Shown here: in pieces, positions 7,101-35,668 of the stretch
Position numbering within the stretch: position 1 is the stretch's first letter
How the letters are laid out: every line of letters starts with the position of its first letter
From: Candidatus Cloacimonadales bacterium
GTDB lineage: Bacteria > Cloacimonadota > Cloacimonadia > Cloacimonadales > JAIOQZ01
Length of the DNA stretch: 64,000 nucleotides
Assembly (NCBI GenBank): GCA_963665815.1
Contig: OY762463.1
Location: forward strand, 3,520,001-3,584,000
Direction of reading: 5' to 3'
The notes under the pieces: generated by a model
Told to the model about the DNA's origin: nothing
Seen by the model: only the letters and a program-made list of their open reading frames with translations
The model's database searches: none
Position numbers and translations under genes: made by a program

Positions 7101-8093
7101 TTATCCTTTATTTATTTTATTATGTTTGATCATTATTCGTACGGCATTGGTCGCAGCTCCTACGAATACATTATGTGCAATGTTTACAAAACTTAATGAA
7201 TAATCATCAAGCCCTTTCCTCAGTCTGCATACATGAGAATACTCTCGTTCAGTGCTACTCTCAATAGATTTCGGAGTAATGGTATTCTTGTGAAGTTTAA
7301 CATGCTCTGTCATAGATAGAATATATTCTGCTTTGGAAATATCAACTTTTTTCTTGAATTTTGTGTGTATTGCTATAGTGTGTCCATATATAACAGGAAC
7401 TCTGATTGTTGTAGCGGATACATTTATCTCCTGACAATCAAATATCTTTTGAGTCTCTGTTAACATTTTCAATTCTTCACTGCAATATCCGTTATCTGTA
7501 ATATCACCGATTTGAGGGATTACATTATTACGTATTGGGGCACTGAAGCATGATTCCGTATTGATATTCTTTTCTTCATTTATCAAACTCATTATCCCAT
7601 TATTACCTGCACCTGATACAGACTGATAAGTACTTGTAACAATCTCATCAATGGAGTATTCGTTATGCAGATCTGCCAATGCAATAACCATTTGGATTGT
7701 AGAACAATTCGGATTGGCAATAATACCTTGATAGTCCTTTAAAGTATGGCTGTTTAATTCCGGTACGACAAGAGGGATGTTCTTATCGGATCTGAAAGCT
7801 GATGAGTTATCAATAATAATGCTGCCTGCCTGTGCTGCTATTGGAGAGAAATGTTTTGAGATTGATCCACCGGATGAAAAAAGCAGATAGTCAAATTTCT
7901 CTTTCATGGATTCTTCTGTGAGAGTCTCAACAGAGATTTCTTTATCCCTGAATTTCAATATCTGTCCGGCAGATTTTCGGGAGGCGAAAAGATGCAGATC
8001 AATTTCACTAAAACTGCTGTCTTTGATTGAACTAACCTGTTCAATCATAGCTCTACCTACTGCCCCTGTTGCTCCGACAATACCTATTTTCAT
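7101..8093 (-). CDS. asd: Aspartate-semialdehyde dehydrogenase
   Basis: IVGATGAVG, IDNSSAFR, ANPNCSTIQ, YQSVSGAG; start at MKIGIV. Confidence 0.97.
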   Translation of the reverse strand: MKIGIVGATGAVGRAMIEQVSSIKDSSFSEIDLHLFASRKSAGQILKFRDKEISVETLTEESMKEKFDYLLFSSGGSISKHFSPIAAQAGSIIIDNSSAFRSDKNIPLVVPELNSHTLKDYQGIIANPNCSTIQMVIALADLHNEYSIDEIVTSTYQSVSGAGNNGIMSLINEEKNINTESCFSAPIRNNVIPQIGDITDNGYCSEELKMLTETQKIFDCQEINVSATTIRVPVIYGHTIAIHTKFKKKVDISKAEYILSMTEHVKLHKNTITPKSIESSTEREYSHVCRLRKGLDDYSLSFVNIAHNVFVGAATNAVRIMIKHNKINKG

Positions 8094-8173
8094 ATTTTTT
8101 CTCCGATATTCTGGAAAATGAGATTGGGACACTTTTTGTCAAATTATTATGCGAAACAATATAATCTTGCAGG

Positions 8174-9895
8174 TCAATCTTGTTTCTGAACGACAAAAAA
8201 AAGTCTGGAGTATGTTTTGTCCAGTTGCCCCGGATTATTATTAATCAGGTTTCTTGCAGTAGTCATTGAATGTATTCCATGCAGTTGAAGACCTGATTCT
8301 CCCAGCAATCGCATAATAGTTTCTACCGGGAATATAGTCTGCTGATGTAATTCTTCGTGTAACTCGTATCCATAAAACTCACGTCGGAATATTCTCAAAT
8401 GATTTTCCTGAACGTTTTCATCTCTGAAATAATCGCTCATGTGTACAAACAGATCATCTCCGTGCTGTTCTACATTCACAAATCCATCGAAATGCTCAGT
8501 ACAATTGAATACAGTAGAAATATCAAATATGAATAAGCCGTTGTCCTCCAAGGATTCATATACATTGAAGAAGAGCTTAAGAACTTCAAACTCACTCTCA
8601 AGGTAGTTTATACTGTCGAAGAGCAAAAGAATCAGATCATAATCGGTACGGGGGAGTGGTGCTGTCATGTCCTGAAGGAACAGTTCCGGATGGTTTCTCT
8701 TTTTTCTTGCAATCCGCAGCATTCCCGCAGAATTATCAGAAGCATGACACTCGATTCCTTTATTAACAAGTAAGGATGCTACATTACATGTACCGCATGC
8801 CAACTCGTGAACCAGCTTTGGACTTCTCTTCAAAATCTTATTAAATTTCCCGAGAACAAATTTTACCCATTTATCATAGTCAACATGTTCCATATATTTA
8901 TCATAGATATCAGAAAAAGTCTGATAGGAGGAAGGATGTACTTCAGTTTGATATCCGGTAAGCATTTCAGCTTTGTTCAAGGCAGAGATCAAACTCATTT
9001 CTGAGGCTGTTCCTTTACCTGCTATATCAAAAGCAGTTCCATGATCTACTGATGTTCTCACATAGGGAAGACCAAGTGTAACATTAACACCGGAGTTTTT
9101 ATGCAGCATTTTGAAAGGGATTAATCCCTGATCGTGATAGGGAGAGATTACAACATCATAATCATCTGCATGATATGCAAAGAATGTATCTGCCGGGAAT
9201 GGTCCATCAATAGCAATACCTTTCTTTTTAAAATCCTGGATAATAATTTTCATTTCTGAATCTATTGTGCCGAAAGCACCATTTTCTCCAGCATGCGGAT
9301 TTACTGCCAGAAGGGCATATCTCATTCCTGCATAAACAGAATTTATAATGTTACAGGCTGTTGTGATTTTAGTCTTTATTTTTCCAGAAGTAAGCTGCTC
9401 ATATAGTTTTGTGATTTCCACATGAGTAGTCAACAAGGTCAGAATGAACTTGTCTCCCCAGAAACTCATCACAGGATCTTCTACATTGGAATGTTGGGCA
9501 AGATATTCTGTATGACCGATGAAGTCAGGATTGCTTTTTTGTATTTCATGTTTTGATACAGGGCAGGTCACAATTGCCTGGACTTTACCTGAATCTATAT
9601 CTACCAGGATTTTATCCAGAATTCTTAAAGAATATGCACCACTTTGCTCGGATGGTTCTCCCGGTTCAAACTTAGTTTCGGAAATAATGTTAAGCAGATA
9701 AACATCTGCGGGATCAACTGCTTCATCAATGCTGGCAATGATTTTGAATCTGTGGTTGTATTTTTCAAAAACCTGTGCTGAACCGTATACTACATAGATT
9801 GTGTTGCGTGCATGTTTATAGAATTCTAAAGCTTTGGCAGTAATTTCCGGACCTATACCACATGGATCACCTGTACTGATAGCTATTCTCTTCAT
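8174..9895 (-). CDS. pdxA: 4-hydroxythreonine-4-phosphate dehydrogenase fused to a C-terminal class I SAM methyltransferase
   Basis: GDPCGIGPE, GHTEYL, NPHAGE, YHDQGLIP, RTSVDHGTAFDIAG; then YD..MEHVDY..W, ELACGT, DSINYL. Confidence 0.9.
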   Translation of the reverse strand: MKRIAISTGDPCGIGPEITAKALEFYKHARNTIYVVYGSAQVFEKYNHRFKIIASIDEAVDPADVYLLNIISETKFEPGEPSEQSGAYSLRILDKILVDIDSGKVQAIVTCPVSKHEIQKSNPDFIGHTEYLAQHSNVEDPVMSFWGDKFILTLLTTHVEITKLYEQLTSGKIKTKITTACNIINSVYAGMRYALLAVNPHAGENGAFGTIDSEMKIIIQDFKKKGIAIDGPFPADTFFAYHADDYDVVISPYHDQGLIPFKMLHKNSGVNVTLGLPYVRTSVDHGTAFDIAGKGTASEMSLISALNKAEMLTGYQTEVHPSSYQTFSDIYDKYMEHVDYDKWVKFVLGKFNKILKRSPKLVHELACGTCNVASLLVNKGIECHASDNSAGMLRIARKKRNHPELFLQDMTAPLPRTDYDLILLLFDSINYLESEFEVLKLFFNVYESLEDNGLFIFDISTVFNCTEHFDGFVNVEQHGDDLFVHMSDYFRDENVQENHLRIFRREFYGYELHEELHQQTIFPVETIMRLLGESGLQLHGIHSMTTARNLINNNPGQLDKTYSRLFFVVQKQD

Positions 9896-24123: not shown

Positions 24124-25055
24124 TTCAGGATATCTATAAACATGAATTTCATAATCCCGTTGTGACTATGGGGACATTTGATGGTGTTCATAAAGGACAT
24201 CAACATCTTCTTGAACAGGTAAAAATGCATGCTGACAAAATTAACGGAAATTCTATTGCAATTACTTATTATCATCATCCTCTTGAAACACTTAATAAAG
24301 TTACATTTCCTTATCTGCTCACAGAAAAATCCAGAAAAGAAGCACTACTGAAGTCCTATGGAATTGATAAAGTGTTTTTCCTTAACTTCACAAAAGAAAT
24401 GGCTGGAATGACTGCATATGACTTCCTGAGGGATATCCTGATCAAACATATTAATCCAAAAGTTATTGTTGCAGGTTATGACACTCACTTTGGATTGAAC
24501 AGAGAAGGCAATTACGATTTTTTGAAAAAACATGAAGCTGACTTTAACTACAATGCTGAAATAGTAGAACAGTTTTGTGTGAATAAGGAAGTCGCAAGCA
24601 GCAGTAATATAAGAGAGCATATAAGAACAGGGGATATGGAATCTGCCAAAGCTTTACTCGGACGTTACTATACTCTTGACGGTATTGTTGTTCATGGCAT
24701 GAGTCTGGGGCGTGAGCTTGGTTTCCCAACAATCAATATTCATCCTGAAGATGACATGAAACTGATCCCGCATACAGGTATCTATTTTACCAAAGTGAGA
24801 TTCTCAGATAAGGAATTCTTTGCTCTGGCAAACATTGGCTATTCTCCAACAATTAAACATACCGGAATAGTTGAACTCGAAGCTTATCTTCTTGATTTTT
24901 CAGGAGATCTTTATGATAAAAATGTTGAGATAAGTTTTTTGAAAAGACTCAGAGATGAAATTGAGTTTAAAAACCAGGATGAATTAATTGACCAGATTAA
25001 ACTTGATGTTGTTGAAGCAAGAAAGTTAATTGCTGAGATTAATCGTCATAACTGA
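24120..25055 (+). CDS. ribF: Riboflavin kinase/FAD synthetase
   Basis: GTFDGVHKGH, SSS.IR, GRELGFPT.N. Confidence 0.97.
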   Translation: MIQDIYKHEFHNPVVTMGTFDGVHKGHQHLLEQVKMHADKINGNSIAITYYHHPLETLNKVTFPYLLTEKSRKEALLKSYGIDKVFFLNFTKEMAGMTAYDFLRDILIKHINPKVIVAGYDTHFGLNREGNYDFLKKHEADFNYNAEIVEQFCVNKEVASSSNIREHIRTGDMESAKALLGRYYTLDGIVVHGMSLGRELGFPTINIHPEDDMKLIPHTGIYFTKVRFSDKEFFALANIGYSPTIKHTGIVELEAYLLDFSGDLYDKNVEISFLKRLRDEIEFKNQDELIDQIKLDVVEARKLIAEINRHN

Positions 25056-25347
25056 AAAAGAAAAGTACAGCTCCCCATAAACATTGCAGAAACGAATATT
25101 TTCTTCTACAATCTTTAAACATTCTATACATACCCCGAGGTGAATAAATATTCACATTGTTTTGTCTCTCAAGATTTATTTTACGCTGATAAATCTCTGT
25201 TCTCGTAGACCACTCAATAGCTCCATCTTCTCCATGTTTATAGGGAATATAACCTTGGTCAATATACGCTTTTTTTTCTGCCGGATTCATTCTTACATCT
25301 TTGGGGTCAAGAATAATTATATCATCATGTTTCTTCTGAGGAGACAT
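25039..25347 (-). CDS. Small hypothetical protein
   Basis: GGAG SD; 102 aa; convergent with and slightly overlapping ribF. Confidence 0.5.
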   Translation of the reverse strand: MSPQKKHDDIIILDPKDVRMNPAEKKAYIDQGYIPYKHGEDGAIEWSTRTEIYQRKINLERQNNVNIYSPRGMYRMFKDCRRKYSFLQCLWGAVLFFFSYDD

Positions 25348-25553: not shown

Positions 25554-25901
25554 TTATAACAGTATGCTATCTATTGATGATTTTAGCTGTTCCTTAGGTA
25601 ACGCACCCATTGCCATCTGAGGTTTCCCTTCTTTAGGAATGAACAACAAAGATGGGATACTTCTTATTCCAAAAGCCCCGGCAAGTTCCTGCTGTTCCTC
25701 AGTATTTACCTTAAATATGTCGATTTTACCTTCATACTCCTGAGATAATTCCTCAAGTACAGGAGCTATCATTTTGCAAGGTCCGCACCAGTCTGCATAA
25801 AAATCGATTAAACATGGTTTTTCACCAATGAATTTCCAGTCTTCGCTATTCTCATAATCAAATATCTTTTTGATGAATGTTTCTTTTGTTAAGTGTTCCA
25901 T
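25554..25901 (-). CDS. trxA: Thioredoxin
   Basis: DFYADWCGPCK, IRSIP; no signal peptide. Confidence 0.95.
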   Translation of the reverse strand: MEHLTKETFIKKIFDYENSEDWKFIGEKPCLIDFYADWCGPCKMIAPVLEELSQEYEGKIDIFKVNTEEQQELAGAFGIRSIPSLLFIPKEGKPQMAMGALPKEQLKSSIDSILL

Positions 25902-25929
25902 GATTTCTCCTTAAATATCCTTTTTAAAG

Positions 25930-25957
25930 ATTATAACTCTAAACTTGATAATGTCAA
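25930..25957 (-). promoter_or_regulatory. Sigma-70-type promoter for trxA
   Basis: Minus strand TTGACA-N16-TATAAT. Confidence 0.6.
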
Positions 25958-25989
25958 ATATTATTTTTAATAATTATAACTATTATTAA

Positions 25990-26979
25990 TTATCTGTCAC
26001 CTGTAAATCGAAAGAGTGCGCCGGATGTCTCTTCATTAATACCAAAAGCATATTTGTTTAACTGCTGTTGCACTGCTTCCAGCGGGAATCCTTTTTTCAC
26101 TGCAATAATAAATGAAGTACTGTTTAATTCTTCAATAACTACATCTTCTAAGGTTGACTCTGTGAATATAATAGAGTTTTCTAAATCCTTGAAGCTCACA
26201 GTGTCATTTATTGTTTTTATTTCGATGTTTCTACCAGTCTCTGCACTGAGCATTTTTTGCAGTTCCTTGAAATACCCCTGATTATCCTCAGCATATACAA
26301 GTATGTTTCGTTTCGTTTCAAAAACGCTGATTTGCTCAATATAATTCATAGGTGGAGCAGGATTAAAGTATTTCACAAGTCCTGTGATACCAAGAATTGT
26401 ATATATTACAGCAACGAGCAATGCGGCATATCTGGCGTATTTTTTGATAATGTGAATTTTGGTTAGTACGTTAACAAATGCGAGTGGGAGCAGGAAAAGT
26501 GATGTACTGATGAAAAATCCAAAGAAAAGAAGCATTCCATTAATCACACCTCCGATATCAAGTACACGTGAAAGAGCTATAAGGAATGACGGGCAGAAAT
26601 TTATCCCGGTCAGAATACCTAACAGAAAAGCGCTTTTGGAAATTTTGGCAATTTTCGGTACAGCACATTTTTTATGTTCATTGTGAGTTCTGTATGTTGT
26701 CAGCAAGAGATATGCAGAGAGCAATATGTAGGCTATTGACGTATACAATGATCTGTTTGTTCCGGAAATAACAGATCCGGTAAAACCTGCTAATGCTCCA
26801 AAAGTAAGGTATGAGAAAAATCTACCGGCGGAGATTTCTACAACAGCCATTATACTGCTGCTTATCTTTCTGTCTTCTGTCAGAAGGTAGGGAAGGTAAA
26901 TCGGTGCACAGGATGCAAGGCATGTTGCTCCTGTTGCAAAGCCGAAGAACAGTCCTTCAAATAATATTCCGAACTGCAT
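25990..26979 (-). CDS. CcdA/DsbD_2 (TauE-like) membrane protein with a soluble C-terminal domain
   Basis: About 6 TM helices with membrane Cys motifs TCLASCAP and NFCP; ~120 aa hydrophilic tail. Confidence 0.7.
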   Translation of the reverse strand: MQFGILFEGLFFGFATGATCLASCAPIYLPYLLTEDRKISSSIMAVVEISAGRFFSYLTFGALAGFTGSVISGTNRSLYTSIAYILLSAYLLLTTYRTHNEHKKCAVPKIAKISKSAFLLGILTGINFCPSFLIALSRVLDIGGVINGMLLFFGFFISTSLFLLPLAFVNVLTKIHIIKKYARYAALLVAVIYTILGITGLVKYFNPAPPMNYIEQISVFETKRNILVYAEDNQGYFKELQKMLSAETGRNIEIKTINDTVSFKDLENSIIFTESTLEDVVIEELNSTSFIIAVKKGFPLEAVQQQLNKYAFGINEETSGALFRFTGDR

Positions 26980-26984
26980 AATTT

Positions 26985-28115
26985 TTACCAGATATACAAG
27001 ATACTTACAGTATGAGTTTGTGTATCATCCAATTCAGAATAATTTTCCATACTGAAATTGTAGTTAAGGTAAGTGGAATTATTCAGAAATTTAAATCTTA
27101 AACCACCATGAAGCTCATTTTCAGTTTCAATGTTTACACCATAAAAGTATCTGTATTCAGTGTGAAGCGTTAGTAATGTTATGGGGTACTCAACTTTAAG
27201 CTTAATGTATCCCTGCTCATCTACAGTATAATACTTAGTACCTGCCTGAATAAGTGCCAGATCATTATCATCTGTATAGAACAGGTTTCGCTGCAGGATT
27301 GTTTCGATAAATGATGTTCCCCAGAGCAGTTCATCATCTTCCTTAATCATGCGAGTCTGGAATCTGTTTACGGAAAGCCAGTCCTGACTGAGCTTAAACA
27401 GATGTCTCACATTAAAATATCCATGGATTCTATTGTTTTCATAGCCATCTGAAACATCGTATATCGCCGAGACAGTGCTCTTGAGAAAATGCTGATGATT
27501 GAAGCTCAAGAAAAGCTCTGCTCCAAGCTCGTTCATAATATAGTTATAATCTGAGTTGTCATTTAAATCATTGAATGACTGAATACGGAAAAAAGGTTTC
27601 AGTTTCTCATGTTTAATGTACTGCATCTTCATGTCGATAAGCTGATCACTTTCTATATGTTCATCATTCTCAAGTGCAAGACGACGCATATCTAAGTTCA
27701 TATCCAAGCTGACAGTTTCTCTGAAATTACTGCTCAAGCTGAATCCGCCATACAATTGATTTTCCTGTTTCATTGCTTCAGGAATACCGCTGATATGGAT
27801 TTCCTTGTTATTATCAAAATAACCTTCTGCACCCACATAAGCGCTGAAAGAAAATATTTTGGAATATCTGGACAAAGCAACTGTGTTTTTCAGATAGTTA
27901 TTATAGTATGATCCATTAAATTCATCATTAGCATTGTATTTCAATAATGTAACATTACTAATATTAATGGATTTATATTTTAATTTTGCATAATTCTCAA
28001 CTCTCATGATAGAATCATCATTGTCAGAGGAGTTATATTCAATTTTCACCTGATTCTGAAACCCTGAAAGAAGGAATGGCATAATGATGATCAGTATTAT
28101 AAGTATTTTTCTCAT
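26985..28115 (-). CDS. Predicted outer-membrane beta-barrel protein
   Basis: Signal peptide; alternating strands (FSFSAYVG, LHGGLRFKF, YLNYNFS); C-terminal VSILYIW. Confidence 0.6.
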   Translation of the reverse strand: MRKILIILIIIMPFLLSGFQNQVKIEYNSSDNDDSIMRVENYAKLKYKSINISNVTLLKYNANDEFNGSYYNNYLKNTVALSRYSKIFSFSAYVGAEGYFDNNKEIHISGIPEAMKQENQLYGGFSLSSNFRETVSLDMNLDMRRLALENDEHIESDQLIDMKMQYIKHEKLKPFFRIQSFNDLNDNSDYNYIMNELGAELFLSFNHQHFLKSTVSAIYDVSDGYENNRIHGYFNVRHLFKLSQDWLSVNRFQTRMIKEDDELLWGTSFIETILQRNLFYTDDNDLALIQAGTKYYTVDEQGYIKLKVEYPITLLTLHTEYRYFYGVNIETENELHGGLRFKFLNNSTYLNYNFSMENYSELDDTQTHTVSILYIW

Positions 28116-28357
28116 CTTATAGCCTCCTCAGGACATTTTGTCACACAATCACCGCATTGCTTGCATTTCGACTGGATTATTGAAGCTTTCCCGTTTGTAA
28201 TTACAATTGCATCATGGGGACAGGCATCTCTGCACTTTCCACAGGATATACATGCATCCTTGTCTATGGAATATTCAAATGATGTTGCTTTTTTACAACC
28301 TGCAAAAACAGCGAACACGAATGAAAGAGCTAAGAATATATAGAGGGCTTTTCTCAT
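28112..28357 (-). CDS. 2[4Fe-4S] ferredoxin lipoprotein
   Basis: MRKALY...FAGC lipobox; CISCGKCRDACP and CKQCGDCVTKCP; ATGA overlaps with both neighbours. Confidence 0.85.
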   Translation of the reverse strand: MRKALYIFLALSFVFAVFAGCKKATSFEYSIDKDACISCGKCRDACPHDAIVITNGKASIIQSKCKQCGDCVTKCPEEAIR

Positions 28358-28599
28358 TTTATTGCTCCGAATGTACATGTTGTAAGACAGAGTTTACAGT
28401 TGATGCATTTCTCTGTGTCAATCACAGCTTTGCCTTCTGATACTGTTATTGCCTTTACCGGGCATACTGTCTGGCAGTCTCCACATCCGGCACAGTCTGA
28501 CTGTATAACGATCGGTTTTTTATCTTCAGATTTCGCATTACCTGCAAAAACGATGAAAACCAGAGAGAGTAAAAATATTATTATAAATGTTTTCTTCAT
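28354..28599 (-). CDS. Exported 2[4Fe-4S] ferredoxin
   Basis: MKKTF...VFA signal peptide; CAGCGDCQTVCP and CINCKLCLTTC. Confidence 0.85.
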   Translation of the reverse strand: MKKTFIIIFLLSLVFIVFAGNAKSEDKKPIVIQSDCAGCGDCQTVCPVKAITVSEGKAVIDTEKCINCKLCLTTCTFGAIK

Positions 28600-28608
28600 A
28601 TTCCCTTC

Positions 28609-30819
28609 CTAATATACGTGAACACCAAGGTGAATAGCATTCCAGCCGCATCTGTTATAGCATGTACCACAAGCATCACATGCTGCCGTATCAATTGTCT
28701 TATAGTTTCCTACATCCGATATTGCATCTTCAGGGCAGAACCTGAGACAGCTGTTACAATCAGCACATTGATTCGGGTTTATGATGTATACAATCTTACC
28801 GGAAACAATATTTGATATTGATCCGTAATTGTTGCTGTCATCTATTGCTTTGATAGCTATGTAATAACGAGTTCCGTTTGAAATTCCATTTACATCGCAG
28901 GTTTGAGTTGTTCCTGCCGCACCTGGTGCCGGAGAACTGGAAAACGGACTTGCATTATCCCAGTTTGCATCTGTTATAGGTGATTGAGAATATCGAATAT
29001 CATAGCTTGCTGCAGTTCCTATATCAGCATCATCTCCGGGGGCAGTCCATGTAACACGTAATCTCCCGTTCAATGCAGCGGATGCCACGATTTGGAGATC
29101 GGTAATGGCTGACGGAGGAGTATCATCGGCTGTTAACTGACCTGATACAATGTTGGATATTCCACTGTAGTTTCCAGCTTCATCAAAAGCTTTAATACCG
29201 AAATAATACAGTGTTCCAACTTCTATGTCAGTTATCTCAAAACTTTCTTGATTACCATTTGCCTGCGGAGTCAAACTGCAGCTGACAGGATCGGCAGAAT
29301 CCCAGTTGGTAGAGTTCAGTTCTGTTGTAGATTTTTTTATCTCATATCCTTCACTTGTTCCAGTGTTACCATCATCACCTGTTGAAGTCCATGTGAGTTC
29401 CATGGAAGCAGGGAGCAGGCTCAGTTGCAAGTCAGTAATATCTGCAGGAGCAAGAGTGTCTGCCACTGTATCCGTAGTGAAAGATACAATATTAGATAAT
29501 CCGGATATGTTATCGGAGTCATCAATTGATTTGATACCTATATAGTATTCAGTATCTGATGTAAGATTTGTAATAAGAAGACTTTCATCAGATCCTGATT
29601 GTGATGGAACATAGTTATGGGGAAACTCTGTCAGGGAATCCCAGTTTTGATCGGTAATATCAGCTTCACTGACTTTTATGATGTATTCCGTAGCTGTCCC
29701 TGTATCACCATTATCTCCCGGAGCAGTCCAGATTATTCTGGCACTGGAAGCTGTAACCAATTCTGTTGCGAGGTCACTGACAGTTGACGGTGGAGTTACA
29801 TCTCCTGTGATAGATGCAACAGCAATATTGGATAGTTCAGATTCATTATCAGACTCATCTACAGCTTTTATGGCAAATTCAAAGCTGATTCCTACTTCAA
29901 GATCATCAATAACGAGGTTTTCAGATATTCCAGCGGTTTGTGGTGAAATAGAATTATTATATTCCTCAGCCAGATCCCAGTCAAAGGGGCTTGTTTGGGA
30001 ATATTTAATAATGTAATGATCCGCTGTTCCTGTCATATCATCATCACCGACAGCAGACCAACTCAGTTCTATTGATTCTTCATTTGATACAGCAGCAAGA
30101 TCGGATATAGCTGCAGGTGCTGTTTCATCAGTGATCAGTCCTGCTATGATGGTAGATCTTTCAACTTCTGTATTTTTATTGCCTGCTTCATCTTCAACTT
30201 GAAGTCTAACGGTTAAAAGGTAATCTGAATTAAGACTGTCAACAACCCATTCGACATGGGTGCCGCCCTGATAATAAGCGTATTCTGCACATGGAATTTC
30301 AACTTCTTCCATATCATCATATTCATCGTCATCAACGTCATCAACGTCATCATCATTGGCCCTTGTATCGGTCATATCATCGAGGTAGGCTGACAGTTTA
30401 TATTTATATGCATAACCTGTCATTCCATCATCTCCCGGAGCAGTAAAAGATATAACTGCTTCGTATGGATTTTCTGAAACAACTTTGAAGTCATTGATAT
30501 CTGCCGGTGCATTAATATCTTTTGCTGTTGTAAAAGCAACTGTACCATCACGACCTTCACAGTCAGCGAAGAGATCAATACATTTCATGCAGCTAATACA
30601 TTTGTCTTTATCAATGTAATATGCTCCGTTTTCATCATCGAGAAGAATGGCATTCTCCGGACATTCAAACATCGTTGTACAATTACCACATTGAGTACAA
30701 TCGGAATATTCAATTCTTGGCTGATTGTTATTTCCGGTGTTTTTATTCACTTTATCAGCACAGAAAAACAGCAGGAATGATACAGCAAGAATTGCTATTA
30801 TCTTAATAGTTTTGATCAT
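28609..30819 (-). CDS. Lipoprotein: ferredoxin domain, five FN3-like repeats, ferredoxin domain
   Basis: LLFFC lipobox; CTQCGNC/CISCMKC; repeats D..P.AI.DL...(W/F)TAPGDDG..G.A..Y; CADCNSCLRFCP/CDACGTCYNRC. Confidence 0.85.
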   Translation of the reverse strand: MIKTIKIIAILAVSFLLFFCADKVNKNTGNNNQPRIEYSDCTQCGNCTTMFECPENAILLDDENGAYYIDKDKCISCMKCIDLFADCEGRDGTVAFTTAKDINAPADINDFKVVSENPYEAVISFTAPGDDGMTGYAYKYKLSAYLDDMTDTRANDDDVDDVDDDEYDDMEEVEIPCAEYAYYQGGTHVEWVVDSLNSDYLLTVRLQVEDEAGNKNTEVERSTIIAGLITDETAPAAISDLAAVSNEESIELSWSAVGDDDMTGTADHYIIKYSQTSPFDWDLAEEYNNSISPQTAGISENLVIDDLEVGISFEFAIKAVDESDNESELSNIAVASITGDVTPPSTVSDLATELVTASSARIIWTAPGDNGDTGTATEYIIKVSEADITDQNWDSLTEFPHNYVPSQSGSDESLLITNLTSDTEYYIGIKSIDDSDNISGLSNIVSFTTDTVADTLAPADITDLQLSLLPASMELTWTSTGDDGNTGTSEGYEIKKSTTELNSTNWDSADPVSCSLTPQANGNQESFEITDIEVGTLYYFGIKAFDEAGNYSGISNIVSGQLTADDTPPSAITDLQIVASAALNGRLRVTWTAPGDDADIGTAASYDIRYSQSPITDANWDNASPFSSSPAPGAAGTTQTCDVNGISNGTRYYIAIKAIDDSNNYGSISNIVSGKIVYIINPNQCADCNSCLRFCPEDAISDVGNYKTIDTAACDACGTCYNRCGWNAIHLGVHVY

Positions 30820-30831
30820 GAAATAACCTTA

Positions 30832-31542
30832 TTATTTATTTTCTTTTTTCTCAATAACTTTCACAGGACATGCTTTTTCACAAATTCCGCAATCAATGCA
30901 TTTTTCCTGGTCAATTACAGCTTTGCCTTTTTTCATTTCAATGGCACCAACAGGGCATTTTTTTACACAAATTTTACATCCAATACATTCTTTAGCATTT
31001 ACAGAATAGACAATCTTGTCTTTGGGATTTGCAACTTTTGCTTCAGCTTTATCAGCTTCCGGTGCATTCTGGCATGGATGGGTTCCACATGGTGTGTGTT
31101 GTGGTTTATGTGCATCTTTAACTGCTTTGTATTTTTCAGATCGTTTTTTTTGTTTTTCTGTTTCTTCATTGAAAGTTTTTACTTTTGGTTTAATTTTTTT
31201 TGCTTCCAGAAGTTTGTCTGTTGTAAATTCCTTAGATTTATGAGTCGTAACAGTTGCTTTGTCTTCAGTTATTTTTTTGAGGTCAACTGCTTCGGATTTT
31301 GCTTTTGATTTAACAATAGCATTTATGGGGCATTTATTAACACAAATTCCGCATCCAATACATTTATCTTTGTCTATAACAGCTTTCCCGTCTACCATTT
31401 TAATTGCATCAACAGGACAATCTTTTATGCAAAGTTTACATCCTATACAGTCATCTTTCTTCACTTCATATTTGGTTTTTACAGTTGCGAAAACTGCAAA
31501 TGTCAGTACTAACATTAAAGCAATGGTAAGTAGTTTCTTCAT
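30832..31542 (-). CDS. Exported tetra-[4Fe-4S] polyferredoxin with a Lys-rich linker
   Basis: AGGAG SD; MKKLL...VFA signal peptide; four CxxCxxCxxxCP motifs in two domains. Confidence 0.85.
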   Translation of the reverse strand: MKKLLTIALMLVLTFAVFATVKTKYEVKKDDCIGCKLCIKDCPVDAIKMVDGKAVIDKDKCIGCGICVNKCPINAIVKSKAKSEAVDLKKITEDKATVTTHKSKEFTTDKLLEAKKIKPKVKTFNEETEKQKKRSEKYKAVKDAHKPQHTPCGTHPCQNAPEADKAEAKVANPKDKIVYSVNAKECIGCKICVKKCPVGAIEMKKGKAVIDQEKCIDCGICEKACPVKVIEKKENK

Positions 31543-31640
31543 TTTTTTTATCTCCTGAAAAAATATATTATTTATGTTTGTCAAAAACAAGCATAATATT
31601 AAATAATGGCAAGTAAAAGTTAGAGTAAATGGAGTGCGAA

Positions 31641-32429
31641 ATGAAAAAGCATAAATCACGTTATATCATTCAGTTTTTGTTTCTTGCTGTCTCAATGTTT
31701 ATCAATGTACTAATGATCACTGAGAAGCTTGGAGTAGCTCATGAATTCTGCCCGTTTTCTGCTGTCTGTTTCGGGTTATTTGTTTTACATCCTGCAGTAA
31801 CAGACTGGATTTTCGGAGTTTCAATTACAGTTTCTATTATAATTATTTTATCTGCAATTCCTTTCAGAAGGGTTTTCTGTGGATATGTATGCCCAATAGG
31901 CACAATACAGGAATATGTGTTTGCTTTTTTCAAGTTTAATAAGAAATGTGGAAGAAGGATTCCGGAAAAAATGCATAAAGCATTGTTATGGTTGAAGTAT
32001 ATTGTACTTGCTGCAATTGTAGTCTTAGTTATCAATGGAATGCACAGGTTTTATGTAGATAAATGTCCTGTTTATTCTCTGGGGCATGTAACCGGAATTA
32101 CAATATCCGGAATTGCTGTATTACTTGTGATTTTTGTCGGCTCTTTCTTTATTGAGCGATTATGGTGCCGGTATCTTTGTCCATTGGCTGCGCTGCTTAA
32201 CATAATGCAGATCATAGGAAAAGTTTTACATATACCATCTTACAAGATAAAGAGGAACTTAGCTGACAGCTTTTGTTGTAGAGATTGCCCTGAATACTGT
32301 CCTATGGGAGTAAATTATAAAGACAAAGAAGTAGTTGAATCAGTAGAATGTATACAATGTAGATTTTGTCAAAGACAATGCTGTTTATCCGCAAAAGATT
32401 TATCGAAATGTATTCATAAGAATCCCTGA
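31641..32429 (+). CDS. NapH/MauN-like membrane 4Fe-4S protein
   Basis: TM helices; FCGYVCP and WCRYLCP motifs; C-terminal ferredoxin-like Cys clusters. Confidence 0.85.
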   Translation: MKKHKSRYIIQFLFLAVSMFINVLMITEKLGVAHEFCPFSAVCFGLFVLHPAVTDWIFGVSITVSIIIILSAIPFRRVFCGYVCPIGTIQEYVFAFFKFNKKCGRRIPEKMHKALLWLKYIVLAAIVVLVINGMHRFYVDKCPVYSLGHVTGITISGIAVLLVIFVGSFFIERLWCRYLCPLAALLNIMQIIGKVLHIPSYKIKRNLADSFCCRDCPEYCPMGVNYKDKEVVESVECIQCRFCQRQCCLSAKDLSKCIHKNP

Positions 32430-32509: not shown

Positions 32510-33307
32510 TTATTTTGATTTCCTAAACTGCTTTTTTTCTTTGACTTCTTCATTTTTTCTGAATTCAGAAGATAGTTTTCTTAGTTTATCGTCCATTTTC
32601 AGACTCTGCCATTCTTTAAAGCCGCCTTCAAGAACAAAGATTTGCTTATCTTCAAATTTTGCAAGTCGTTCTGCAACAGTTGCAGCATTTTCAAATTCAT
32701 TTGCATATACGAAGAAAAACTGTTTTTTGCTGAGATTCTTCATGAAAGTTTCCTTTTTTTCAGACTTGACATCAAGATTAACAGCACCATAAATATGGTG
32801 TTCTTCGAAAATGTATTCCGGGCTTGCATCAATAATAATGCTGTTATTATAATGTTTTACAAGGATATCGAAAGCATTTTCCGAAGATACATACTGAATT
32901 TTGTTAACCGGCCGAGTGGGCTTTCTTTTTTTTCTTGGAGCTCCGGTTATGTGACCTTTCATAGTAACTATTTCATATTCATTGGCAGTGTTAGCATAGA
33001 TTTTAATTCTCTTGTTATGGCGTCCTGCCTGACGCTTAGGGTTAAAGTCCACTTTTACAAAGCCTTTCTTACCAGGCATAATCTTTCCAGTTGACCAACT
33101 GGTTGAGGAACATCCGCATCCAGACTGGATTTTGGATATTACTAACGGCTCATCCCCGGTATTAGTGAAGTTATACGTGTAGCTGAATGGACCGTCTACT
33201 TCTTTCCATTCCTTGAAATCATAGGTGTCAGTTTCGAAACTCATCACCGGTACTGAATTCAGGGCAGCAGAAAGAATCAACATCACAAGCAATAAATATC
33301 GCTTCAT
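32510..33307 (-). CDS. Exported DUF1573 (Ig-like) plus rhodanese-like protein
   Basis: Signal peptide; FTNTGDEPL.I....GCGC; IID.....F...HIYGAVNL and LEGGFKEW. Confidence 0.8.
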   Translation of the reverse strand: MKRYLLLVMLILSAALNSVPVMSFETDTYDFKEWKEVDGPFSYTYNFTNTGDEPLVISKIQSGCGCSSTSWSTGKIMPGKKGFVKVDFNPKRQAGRHNKRIKIYANTANEYEIVTMKGHITGAPRKKRKPTRPVNKIQYVSSENAFDILVKHYNNSIIIDASPEYIFEEHHIYGAVNLDVKSEKKETFMKNLSKKQFFFVYANEFENAATVAERLAKFEDKQIFVLEGGFKEWQSLKMDDKLRKLSSEFRKNEEVKEKKQFRKSK

Positions 33308-34941
33308 TCGATTACTCCCTTCATGCTGATTTGCATTGTTTTTCTGTTACCATCCTCATGAAAAAACATTGTTATTTCTTCAGAACCTGAAAGTTCAAAT
33401 TCGTCTGAATCCGGAAGAAATATAATTGATTTCTTCAAAATAGGTATCAAATTTATGTTATTATTGCAAAAGTTAAGTTTTTCGTAAAGTAATTTTCTGA
33501 TAGTTTTAGATTTCTCCTGTCCAAGAAGATCAGGATAATGAAGGTTTTTAGTTATAAGACACCAGTCCCATCGCAGATAATCCATACAAGTATGCCTTTG
33601 CTCAGGAAGGTATTCATCACACAAATCAAGCAGAAATTCGGCAACTGTCAGCCACCGATTGTTTGTAAGTCTGCAAGATAACTCAAAGTCCAGAAGAGTC
33701 TCGAAGAACAACATTGGACTGTCATATTTTCTGATAAGCCAGTTCAGAGTATTGCTGAATTTACCTGAATTATGCAGGATTTCCATCCAGACAGCAATTT
33801 TTTTAAATTTCCTGATCTCTGAATAACTCATCCAGTCTGTACTAAGAACTTCGTAAGGTGGTTCAACAGTATGAATAAGATTGTTATAGCAGGTGTTGAT
33901 TGTTGTACCTTGCAGAACTTTCAGAAAACCTATTTGTATATGATCTGCTCCTGTGTTAAACAAATCATTTAATGTGACTGATGCAGATTTATAATCCTGA
34001 TGAGGCAGTCCGGTGATCATGTCAATATGGGTGTGGATGTTTTTCAGTTGAATAAGCTTTAGCAGGTTTGACCTGATATCATTCCACTTCTGGAATCTTG
34101 ATACTGCATAATTGACGGCATCGTCAGTTGACTGTATCCCGATTTCAAATTGAAACTTGTTTTCCGGTACAGTGCTGAGGAACTCAATATCTTCATCAAT
34201 AACAAAAGCAGGATGAATCTCAAAATGAAATCCGGTATTAGTGGTTTTACTTAATATTGATTTCCATAATTGTAAACTGTAATTTCTGTCGCAGTTAAAT
34301 GAGCGATCTATGAATTTGATCAAATCCGGTTTGAATCCGAGAATATAATCAAGTTCTGCAGATACTTTCTTAATGCTTTTCCTGCTCAGTTTCATGTCTT
34401 CACGTGAAGAAAGACAATAAGAGCACTTGAAGATACATCCTCTGGATGCTTCATAATAGATAATTTTGTTTTCCAGGCATTTCAGATCAATATTTTTATA
34501 TGGGTTATCTGAGAGCTCAAAATTGTCTGCTTGTCCATATATTATTTTTCCTTTAACACTGAAATCTGATTCGGCGAGATTTATTATTGCCTTTTCTCCC
34601 GGTCCTGAAATGATATAATCTGCAATATCTGTGTATTCCTGCGGATTGTATGAGACTTCAGGTCCACCAAAAACTATCACGGACTCAGGCATAATCCTTT
34701 TGAGATTAATAGCTACCTGCTTAACCAGAGAAACATTCCAGATATATACAGAAAAACTGTAAACATCTGCTTTTCTGTCATAGAGGTTGTTCAGTAGTTC
34801 ATCTGCAGGTGTATTGATAGAATATTCAGAGATTTCAGATTCAATGTTGCAATTAGCAAGAGCCTGGTGTAGATAAAAAACTGCAGGATTAGAGTGTGAA
34901 TATCTTGCATTAAGGGATACAAACAGTATTGTCTTATTCAT
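33304..34941 (-). CDS. B12-binding-domain radical SAM protein (DUF4080 type)
   Basis: FSVYIWN, GGPEVS, YYEASRGCIFKCSYC, FEIGIQS. Confidence 0.88.
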   Translation of the reverse strand: MNKTILFVSLNARYSHSNPAVFYLHQALANCNIESEISEYSINTPADELLNNLYDRKADVYSFSVYIWNVSLVKQVAINLKRIMPESVIVFGGPEVSYNPQEYTDIADYIISGPGEKAIINLAESDFSVKGKIIYGQADNFELSDNPYKNIDLKCLENKIIYYEASRGCIFKCSYCLSSREDMKLSRKSIKKVSAELDYILGFKPDLIKFIDRSFNCDRNYSLQLWKSILSKTTNTGFHFEIHPAFVIDEDIEFLSTVPENKFQFEIGIQSTDDAVNYAVSRFQKWNDIRSNLLKLIQLKNIHTHIDMITGLPHQDYKSASVTLNDLFNTGADHIQIGFLKVLQGTTINTCYNNLIHTVEPPYEVLSTDWMSYSEIRKFKKIAVWMEILHNSGKFSNTLNWLIRKYDSPMLFFETLLDFELSCRLTNNRWLTVAEFLLDLCDEYLPEQRHTCMDYLRWDWCLITKNLHYPDLLGQEKSKTIRKLLYEKLNFCNNNINLIPILKKSIIFLPDSDEFELSGSEEITMFFHEDGNRKTMQISMKGVIE

Positions 34942-35668
34942 TTCCGAGTGATTTGACTCTCTCATATATAATGGTTTTAGCTTTTTCCAGATCTTCAGGG
35001 AAATCTATTTCAATACATGGAAGATCCTGACTTGGAACTGCTTTTAAAGTTGTTTCAGACAGCATCAGATTTACAGCATACTCAAAATAATTGTTACCAA
35101 GATTTTTATCAACGCATTCTGTCAGCCTGTTTTCCAGAAGCTTCAAGTCGTTTCTGGCAAATTTTGCGATACCTATGAATTCACCTGCACATTTTTCAGG
35201 TTCGATCTGCTTGCCTATAAAACTGATGTCCATATTTTTATCAATAACAAGTTTTACTTCCTCAGCTCCGCATTTTTTCTCTTCAAGGATAAATTCGGAT
35301 GTTTGAGAATTATTGAACAGATCAAGCATTTTTCCACCAAAGAATATGTCAGCATTAAAATATATGAAATCGTCTGTAAACAAATCTCTGCAAAGCCATA
35401 ATGAATAGAGTGTGTTGGTTGTTGCATAAATTGGATTTTCTACGAATGTAACCTGATCAGGCTTGAGAAGTTCCAGTATATGGGACTTAAGTACATCCAT
35501 CTGATAGCCGACAACAACAACAAAGTCATTGATCCCATATTCTAAACATGTTTGTATCTGATTATGGATAATGGATTTTTCACCGATTTTTATCATGCTT
35601 TTAGGTTGTTCTTTACCCTTTGTACCAAGTCTGCTTCCTCTACCGGCAGCAAGTATTACCGCTTTCAT
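34934..35668 (-). CDS. Phosphocholine cytidylyltransferase-family NTP transferase
   Basis: MKAVILAAGRGSRL, PKS, TNTLYSL, EIDFPEDL. Confidence 0.85.
   Translation of the reverse strand: MKAVILAAGRGSRLGTKGKEQPKSMIKIGEKSIIHNQIQTCLEYGINDFVVVVGYQMDVLKSHILELLKPDQVTFVENPIYATTNTLYSLWLCRDLFTDDFIYFNADIFFGGKMLDLFNNSQTSEFILEEKKCGAEEVKLVIDKNMDISFIGKQIEPEKCAGEFIGIAKFARNDLKLLENRLTECVDKNLGNNYFEYAVNLMLSETTLKAVPSQDLPCIEIDFPEDLEKAKTIIYERVKSLGNE

Follow-up and report, generated by a model that had tools for sequence, protein, structure and literature searches.

Exported ferredoxins encoded with an outer-membrane barrel in Cloacimonadota: a possible haem-free electron route across the cell envelope

A gene cluster of Candidatus Cloacimonadales bacterium encodes four exported ferredoxin-type proteins together with an outer-membrane β-barrel, a Cys-containing membrane protein and a NapH-like membrane protein, and we propose that it provides a haem-free, iron-sulfur (Fe-S) route for electrons across the cell envelope. 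The cluster lies in a stretch of 64,000 nucleotides, hereafter the window, which covers positions 3520001-3584000 of contig OY762463.1 (assembly GCA_963665815.1); the source genome is a single contig of 3.96 Mb and is 98.66% complete. Coordinates below are those of the window unless the source genome or another locus is named. The proposal builds on the gene content of the locus, the export signals of its products, the modelled fold of the barrel and the co-conservation of the set in related genomes. The function is what we infer from these observations, and we give it a probability of about 0.5.

Six genes are densely packed on the minus strand, separated by 5-12 bases or overlapping at ATGA. 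They encode an exported polyferredoxin (FdA), a lipoprotein ferredoxin with FN3 repeats (FdFN3), a small soluble exported 2x[4Fe-4S] ferredoxin (FdB), a small lipoprotein 2x[4Fe-4S] ferredoxin (FdC), the outer-membrane β-barrel, and a DsbD_2/CcdA-like six-helix membrane protein (DsbD_2 protein). The two ATGA overlaps join the stop of FdB to the start of FdC and the stop of FdC to the start of the barrel gene, and the gene for the NapH-like membrane Fe-S protein is divergent, on the plus strand. A sequence-only reading of the same DNA had described six close minus-strand genes with two such overlaps, four exported ferredoxin-type proteins with about 12 CxxCxxC motifs, no CxxCH haem motif, and a parts list of exported ferredoxins, barrel, Cys-containing membrane protein and NapH-like protein. 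The open reading frame (ORF) listing and a script check bear out this description: the motifs number exactly 12 (4+4+2+2 across FdA, FdFN3, FdB and FdC), the four ferredoxins carry Sec or lipoprotein signals, and CxxCH is absent from all eight proteins of the locus, a downstream thioredoxin being the eighth. In addition, no ORF of the source genome contains more than two CxxCH motifs. Families were assigned by Pfam and NCBIfam scans, with Pfam matches reported at E <= 0.01.

The sequence-only reading had also named co-conservation of the barrel, exported ferredoxin, DsbD_2 and NapH-like genes as a check of the proposed system, and this linkage proved to be kept across families of the phylum. 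A protein search in 41 relatives found the barrel in nine, and a profile search across 201 Cloacimonadota genomes found it in 36, spanning 18 of 61 genera: in all seven genomes of the source organism's own family, in 24 of 52 and one of one in two other families, and in three of 15 in a family of another order. We then compared the ORFs of 18 loci around barrel matches, which come from several families and include a second order of the phylum, with the proteins of the window. The order FdFN3-FdB-FdC-barrel is found in all 18 loci, the DsbD_2 gene directly follows the barrel gene in 14, and the NapH-like gene adjoins the cluster in ten, eight times in the orientation of the operon, with an FdA-like gene on one side and FdFN3 on the other. 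Since this arrangement recurs in 18 of 18 related loci, it is not a product of chance. A catalytic subunit, whether a molybdopterin, flavin or haem protein, is encoded in none of the 18 loci.

The ferredoxin character of the exported proteins is supported by their domains, their conserved ligands and their motif spacing. FdA (30832-31542, minus strand; 236 amino acids (aa) from MKKLL) contains two 2x[4Fe-4S] domains separated by a Lys/Glu-rich linker, with four CxxCxxCxxxC motifs and a Pfam Fer4 match of 105 bits over four stretches. Its N terminus, MKKLLTIALMLVLTFAVFA, is a Sec-type signal peptide without an RR motif, and its counterparts in other genera, of 166-202 aa, also begin with a signal peptide and contain either one ferredoxin domain or two. 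FdB (28354-28599, minus strand; 81 aa) matches Fer4_7 with 51 bits, has a Sec/SPI-type signal and retains eight of eight Cys among 15 orthologs. The N termini of both FdA and FdB have a Lys-rich n-region, a hydrophobic core and an Ala-x-Ala-type site, and neither has a twin arginine. FdC (28112-28357, minus strand; 81 aa from MRKAL) matches Fer4 with 57 bits, and its lipobox Cys as well as all eight cluster Cys are invariant among 15 orthologs. The residues after its lipid Cys are Lys-rich and hold no acidic export signal, which would fit a lipoprotein kept on the periplasmic side. The CxxCxxCxxxCP spacing, including the Pro, is retained in all carriers, and the two CxxCxxCxxxC(P) motifs per domain of about 55 residues, by which Fer4 2x[4Fe-4S] ferredoxins are recognised, are found here by motif, by Pfam match and by ortholog invariance alike.

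FdFN3 (28609-30819, minus strand; 736 aa) is the largest of the four, and it carries a ferredoxin domain at each end. The N-terminal two-cluster domain (about 30550-30717) has a wider spacing to the fourth Cys than CxxCxxCxxxC(P), and the C-terminal two-cluster domain is at about 28612-28788. Between them lie five FN3-like repeats, including an acidic insert (about 28795-30522), with five recurring xGD[DN]..G.[AST]..Y motifs; Pfam gives fn3 92 bits and finds Fer4 families at both ends, and the net charge of the protein is -91. Its lipobox reads FFC. Among the 120 FdFN3 homologs listed, 61 have ferredoxin motifs at both ends, and 59 of these 61 have a lipobox-like Cys. In 58 of the 59, Asp occupies position +3 after a polar or small residue at +2; Asp at +3 occurs in 36 of 310 crude lipoprotein-like N termini of the source genome. 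A tether of fixed length, 18-21 residues, separates the lipid Cys from the first Cys of the ferredoxin domain in this family. The FN3 part alone has many relatives in other phyla that lack the ferredoxin ends. In Bacteroidota, lipoproteins are directed to the cell surface by a polar residue at +2 with Asp at +3 and +4 (PMC5080379). By analogy, the +2/+3 residues of FdFN3 fit this signal, Cloacimonadota being a different phylum.

A second kind of surface signal is also attached to ferredoxins in this lineage. In one related locus (L030), a further operon gene (7921-8460 of that locus) lies between the FN3 gene and FdB; its 179-aa product is a ferredoxin that begins with a signal peptide and ends in a type IX secretion tail (Por_Secre_tail, 39.1 bits; cut-off 27). 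The operon of the window itself encodes no such tail domain. Elsewhere in the source genome (2718599-2719378), without linkage to the operon, a 259-aa paralogue of this kind combines a signal peptide, a 2x[4Fe-4S] ferredoxin, CarboxypepD_reg and a type IX C-terminal tail (Pfam scan, 28.5 bits; genome search, 29.2 bits) and is apparently bound for the cell surface. Thus, judging from the lipoprotein signal of FdFN3 and from the type IX-tailed ferredoxins, two separate kinds of sorting signal are predicted to carry ferredoxin domains of this lineage to the outside of the outer membrane. Type IX C-terminal sorting domains have at least 150 matches in the source genome (150 of 184 candidates scored), so that for its 4 Mb the genome encodes a very large set of surface or secreted proteins. 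A further candidate exported Fe-S protein of 363 aa, at 2205257-2206348 of the source genome, has a signal-peptide-like N terminus and a DUF362 domain with an inserted 2x[4Fe-4S] ferredoxin domain.

The barrel protein (26985-28115, minus strand; 376 aa) has a signal peptide, no plug domain and no Cys. No Pfam family and no NCBIfam family matches it. Nevertheless, its barrel-like nature, first suggested from the sequence, is confirmed by an AlphaFold2 model (mean pLDDT 80.5) that shows, besides a signal helix, about 21 long strands with very short connecting loops, and whose Foldseek matches are outer-membrane barrels only. The protein is thus modelled as a wide plugless barrel of about 20-22 strands, a fold that, on the evidence of the model, ties it to no single family. 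Ten orthologs align from end to end, and the aromatic residue at their C terminus is conserved. The sequence family is tiny, with 37 representatives among 1.84 billion proteins; its matches in the Protein Atlas are to unnamed or porin-like clusters only, and for ten distant relatives Cloacimonadota is the sole name among the cluster members, with no other taxa. A co-fold of the barrel with the exported ferredoxins had been suggested by the sequence-only reading as well, and was run for the barrel (residues 19-376) with mature FdC and two [4Fe-4S] clusters. The ipSAE score was 0.38 (runs 0.38, 0.46 and 0.38) against 0.00 in each of three controls, with a contact agreement of at least 77% and a partner pLDDT of at least 70; the mark for such scores is reached by 116 of 157 solved complexes and two of 215 mismatches, scores of 0.60 or less comprise 18 of those 116 complexes and both mismatches, and the run, with its own alignments and riding ligands, differs from this calibration. 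The model thus weakly suggests an association of the barrel with FdC.

At the inner membrane, electrons would enter through the NapH-like protein (31629 or 31641 to 32429, plus strand; 266 aa from the first ATG, with alignment of orthologs favouring the start MKKHK at 31641). It matches Pfam Fer4_5 with 60.3 bits (cut-off 22), and the subfamily models TIGR02163 and NF007013 with 53.1 bits (cut-off 213.05) and 50.4 bits (cut-off 234), so that it is assigned to the superfamily only and not to the NapH subfamily. Eleven orthologs share two invariant CxxxCP motifs and seven invariant C-terminal Cys, and the invariant C37, C43, C142, H34 and H149 are in two loops predicted to be periplasmic. NapH-like proteins have been proposed as transmembrane electron-transfer modules of extracytosolic redox systems, usually with flavin mononucleotide (FMN)-binding partners (PMC8238504). 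Neither an FMN-binding nor an ApbE family was found among the cluster proteins or ten further proteins from related loci.

The sequence-only reading was correct about the divergent NapH-like gene, but the link it drew to the membrane redox (quinone) pool is unsupported. MenA and cytochrome bd were not found in the source genome, and NqrA gave no match above cut-off. The sole UbiA-family gene, which comes after a polyprenyl synthase-like ORF (both within 1591469-1593204 of the source genome), matches best the archaeal-type geranylgeranylglycerol-phosphate geranylgeranyltransferases (197 bits against an equivalog cut-off of 296); it may relate to the ether-lipid genes reported for FCB-group bacteria. 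With MenA, cytochrome bd and an above-cut-off NqrA not found, and with the geranylgeranylglycerol-phosphate type of the UbiA gene, a quinol donor for the NapH-like protein is unlikely. The source genome also has two Rnf/Nqr-type matches and four [FeFe]-hydrogenase matches, and Rnf-type complexes and [FeFe]-hydrogenases fit a ferredoxin-centred fermentation. At 2292048-2293595 it encodes a second NapH-like membrane protein, fused to a FAD/NAD(P)-binding ferredoxin-reductase (FNR) module, which would feed NAD(P)H electrons into the NapH-type membrane part. When this fusion was used as a query, 133 of the 201 genomes matched, nearly all through the FNR part, and full-length matches came only from the source genome and one other (G001).

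The DsbD_2 protein (25990-26979, minus strand; 329 aa) matches Pfam DsbD_2 with 69.2 bits (cut-off 24.9). As is characteristic of CcdA/DsbD, it has six helices, of which the first and the fourth carry the essential Cys, and in 14 orthologs C20 and C24 (CxxxCxP, helix 1), C105 (in a Lys-rich loop) and C129 (FCP, helix 4) are invariant. By the positive-inside rule, both termini are predicted to be outside, as in CcdA. A C-terminal α/β domain of about 125 aa is free of Cys and has no recognisable relative, either by sequence among solved structures, where nothing came below E 0.017, or by fold: in Foldseek the model (pLDDT 72.1) gave no match at E <= 0.001, the rows returned being membrane-protein/flavodoxin fusions. 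Its database name is 'sulfite exporter TauE/SafE family', and in the Protein Atlas it falls in a Cloacimonadota cluster of its own. No exported thioredoxin-like CxxC partner for it is encoded in the loci. Longer forms of the DsbD_2 protein (434-458 aa; L015:9982-11286, L016:10029-11405, P0209, P0226, P0236) occur in one genus and in a neighbouring genus; in these the C-terminal domain is duplicated and a segment that contains Cys (QGCPEE...C..C) is inserted.

How such ferredoxins could acquire clusters is a central question. By established knowledge, Fe-S proteins that work outside the cytoplasm receive their clusters before they leave it and then cross the membrane through Tat in folded form, and no exception was found in the literature searched. 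TatC was not found in the source genome by a search whose control was positive in 11 of 14 named genomes; among the 201 Cloacimonadota genomes it was found in seven, and in none of the 36 with the barrel. Since no TatC was found in the barrel-positive genomes, the ferredoxins must leave by Sec, unfolded. Hence either their clusters are loaded outside the cytoplasm or they carry none. If they are loaded there, the DsbD_2 protein is, from its sequence features, the most likely candidate for a maturation helper. A Tat-less lineage that exports ferredoxins calls the rule of cytoplasmic loading and folded export into question. Neither the near-absence of Tat from the phylum nor the surface-sorting signals had figured in the sequence-only reading.

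Together, these components can be arranged into a working scheme, in which the bound clusters, the sequence of carriers, the direction in which electrons flow and the partner in physiology are what we infer. The NapH-like protein would take electrons from a cytoplasmic donor, probably not quinol, through its cytoplasmic Fe-S clusters, and would deliver them on its periplasmic side, where the predicted outer loops hold the three Cys and two His that are invariant. Sec-exported FdA and FdB may then shuttle electrons through the periplasm to FdC, which could sit at or inside the plugless barrel and fill it, as LptE fills LptD or MtrA fills MtrB, and whose gene is translationally coupled to that of the barrel by the ATGA overlap. 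On the surface, the first ferredoxin domain of FdFN3 would be held beside the barrel on a tether of about 20 residues, with the second at the tip of the acidic FN3 stalk, and through these domains electrons could pass, in either direction, between the cell and an external partner, for instance a syntrophic methanogen, Fe(III), sulfur or humics. The apoproteins would cross the inner membrane unfolded and gain [4Fe-4S] outside the cytoplasm, and the DsbD_2/CcdA-like protein may keep the exported Cys reduced or export a building block. A more specific form of this scheme, which we hold only tentatively and consider doubtful as it stands, is that cytochrome-free, Tat-free syntrophs possess a low-potential Fe-S wire through the outer membrane, in which Sec-exported ferredoxins, loaded extracytoplasmically with CcdA-like help, stack through the plugless barrel up to the FN3-stalk lipoprotein for direct exchange with methanogens or minerals. 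If true, extracellular electron conduits would gain a new class, and Fe-S proteins a first route of maturation outside the cytoplasm.

Several observations weigh against an electron route. The barrel is present in only 36 of the 201 sampled genomes and in none of the 88 of the largest family, and is thus not a core trait of the phylum. The DsbD_2 gene is not adjacent in four of the 18 loci, lying elsewhere on the same contig in three of these cases (genomes of L011, L013 and L014), and the NapH-like gene is not adjacent in eight. Among the genes of the cluster there is none for a catalytic terminal reductase or oxidase. The stalk length of FdFN3 orthologs varies widely, from roughly 595 to 1720 aa, and the two ferredoxin domains of FdFN3, five FN3 repeats apart, are much too distant for electron tunnelling unless bending of the stalk or packing of several molecules brings them close. 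In addition, the co-fold score of barrel and FdC is weak, and its output came without an interface. We know of no route for [4Fe-4S] assembly outside the cytoplasm, and with Tat not found the exported ferredoxin folds could bind something else or stay empty. One may therefore argue that the Cys-rich domains are free of clusters outside the cell and serve as metal- or disulfide-stabilised surface or adhesion modules, in an operon for envelope structure or attachment; the FN3 arrays, typical of adhesins, and the FN3-only relatives in other phyla also speak for this. However, the strong Fer4 matches and the Pro-containing motif spacing of all carriers speak against a purely structural role, and redox chemistry is what one would expect from genes that stay linked to those of a NapH-like polyferredoxin and a CcdA-like protein. 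Moreover, Fe-S clusters are loaded non-enzymatically in the practice of in-vitro reconstitution, and strict anaerobes in sulfidic, ferrous habitats could, by extension, load them without enzymes. For these reasons we regard structural modules as the least probable of the alternatives.

Two other alternatives keep the clusters or their cargo and dispense with an outward wire. The locus might be a reductive system of the periplasm or envelope, in which the NapH-like and DsbD_2 proteins power periplasmic ferredoxins, the substrate (polysulfide or sulfur, metal chelates, disulfides) enters through the barrel as a plain porin, and the FN3 protein is an adhesin or substrate binder. We consider this unlikely, since none of the 18 loci encodes a catalytic subunit, the surface-type lipoprotein signal of FdFN3 and the type IX ferredoxin of L030 would place ferredoxin domains beyond the outer membrane, and a barrel of about 22 strands would, with no plug, form a very wide open channel. 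Alternatively, the locus may acquire iron or sulfur: apo-ferredoxin domains on the surface and in the periplasm would catch Fe-S clusters or FeS from sulfidic surroundings, the cargo would pass inward through the barrel to a DsbD_2/LysE-type transporter, and the NapH-like protein would supply electrons for its release. The naming of DsbD_2 in databases as a TauE/SafE-type transporter, its membrane Cys, which could bind soft metals, and the extreme acidity of FdFN3 all suit such a role, and there is a precedent in the Fus system of Pectobacterium, where a ferredoxin is reported to pass an outer-membrane barrel for its iron (PMC6042079). Unlike Fus, the locus has no TonB box, plug or protease; the invariant, full 2x[4Fe-4S] ligand sets suit stable redox cofactors better than transient cargo, and a NapH-like polyferredoxin is a typical part of electron-transfer systems. 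Acquisition therefore seems to us improbable, a little more so than the reductive system, and the outward Fe-S electron route remains the reading that we prefer.

Such a route is best compared with the porin-cytochrome conduits (MtrCAB of Shewanella, PioAB/MtoAB and Pcc of Geobacter), whose carriers are multi-haem proteins, whereas those proposed here are haem-free and carry putative [4Fe-4S] clusters. Each carrier of the former holds ten haems and each carrier here two clusters, which means that several proteins must stack. The barrel has no detectable sequence relation to MtrB and in fold is no closer to it than unrelated barrels are, and export by Sec with proposed maturation outside the cytoplasm is a further difference. 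By analogy, the system would work like a porin-cytochrome conduit, yet it has neither the haem nor the MtrB-family barrel that define one. A small lipoprotein inside a wide outer-membrane barrel is also known from LptD-LptE, which exports lipopolysaccharide. Here, too, a lipoprotein is encoded with the barrel and proposed to lie inside it, as the co-fold of FdC weakly suggests, although sequence and function differ.

The inner-membrane part resembles NapGH, in that the exported four-cluster FdA accompanies a Fer4_5 membrane protein, which has two CxxxCP motifs and a ferredoxin part at its C terminus, as NapG accompanies NapH. In contrast to NapGH, the loci contain no Nap, Nos or Pce catalytic genes, the signal of FdA is of Sec type and not twin-arginine, no TatC was found and there is no sign of a quinone pool. 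The NapH-like systems associated with flavinylation have FMN-binding/ApbE partners (PMC8238504), and the loci have none. The DsbD_2 protein shares with CcdA/DsbD of the LysE superfamily the six helices, the invariant Cys-Pro motifs in helices 1 and 4 and the predicted outside position of both ends, and differs in matching Pfam DsbD_2 rather than DsbD, in an extra CxxxC in helix 1, in an invariant loop Cys and in a Cys-free C-terminal domain. Ferredoxin-type Fe-S subunits outside the cytoplasm are known from DmsEFAB of Shewanella, in which DmsAB is outside the outer membrane, and from subunits of the DsrO/NrfC/HmcB type. These are loaded in the cytoplasm, exported by Tat and bound to catalytic subunits, whereas the ferredoxins here stand alone in a genome in which Tat was not found.

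The proposed route may have wide implications for how electron disposal is surveyed in anaerobes. To our knowledge, every described electron route through a Gram-negative outer membrane relies on multi-haem cytochromes, and for this reason surveys look for haem motifs or conductive pili. A ferredoxin-based route, if real, would be invisible to such surveys, would work at lower potentials that suit syntrophic fermenters, and could explain electron disposal in abundant cytochrome-less lineages of anaerobic digesters and sediments. No description of exported or surface ferredoxins with a barrel was found in the literature searched, whose coverage excluded subscription journals. For direct interspecies electron transfer in Cloacimonadota, the passages seen consider only pili (PMC7382037, PMC13082233), and the searched passages of the Cloacimonadota literature, including PMC13082233, do not mention fibronectin, 4Fe-4S or outer membrane.

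Downstream of the DsbD_2 gene lies a thioredoxin gene (25554-25901, minus strand; TIGR01068, 112.8 bits against a cut-off of 96.8). Its position next to the DsbD_2 gene is as the sequence-only reading described, but its membership of the system did not hold up: the protein has no signal peptide, a 12-of-12 sigma-70-like promoter is found between the two genes at 25957-25930, a terminator-like hairpin follows the thioredoxin gene at 25526-25500, and thioredoxin adjoins the operon in only one of the 18 loci (L010), from the same genus. We therefore rejected it as a part of the system, and it is probably a separate housekeeping unit. Beyond the NapH-like gene, two genes were likewise rejected, as each adjoins the cluster only in L010. 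One (32510-33307, minus strand) encodes an exported DUF1573 domain (Ig-like, with a GCGCS motif) fused to a rhodanese-like domain; the protein weakly matches the OS_HP2 (seleno)protein family, and by eye its rhodanese-like domain has Ala at the expected position of the catalytic Cys. The other (33304-34965, minus strand) encodes a B12-binding radical-SAM protein with DUF4080 and overlaps the start of the DUF1573-rhodanese gene; a distant radical-SAM protein with 25% identity to it is encoded in L017. Finally, an ORF of 102 aa downstream of thioredoxin (25039-25347, minus strand) is assigned to no family and is 87% identical in a genome of the same genus.

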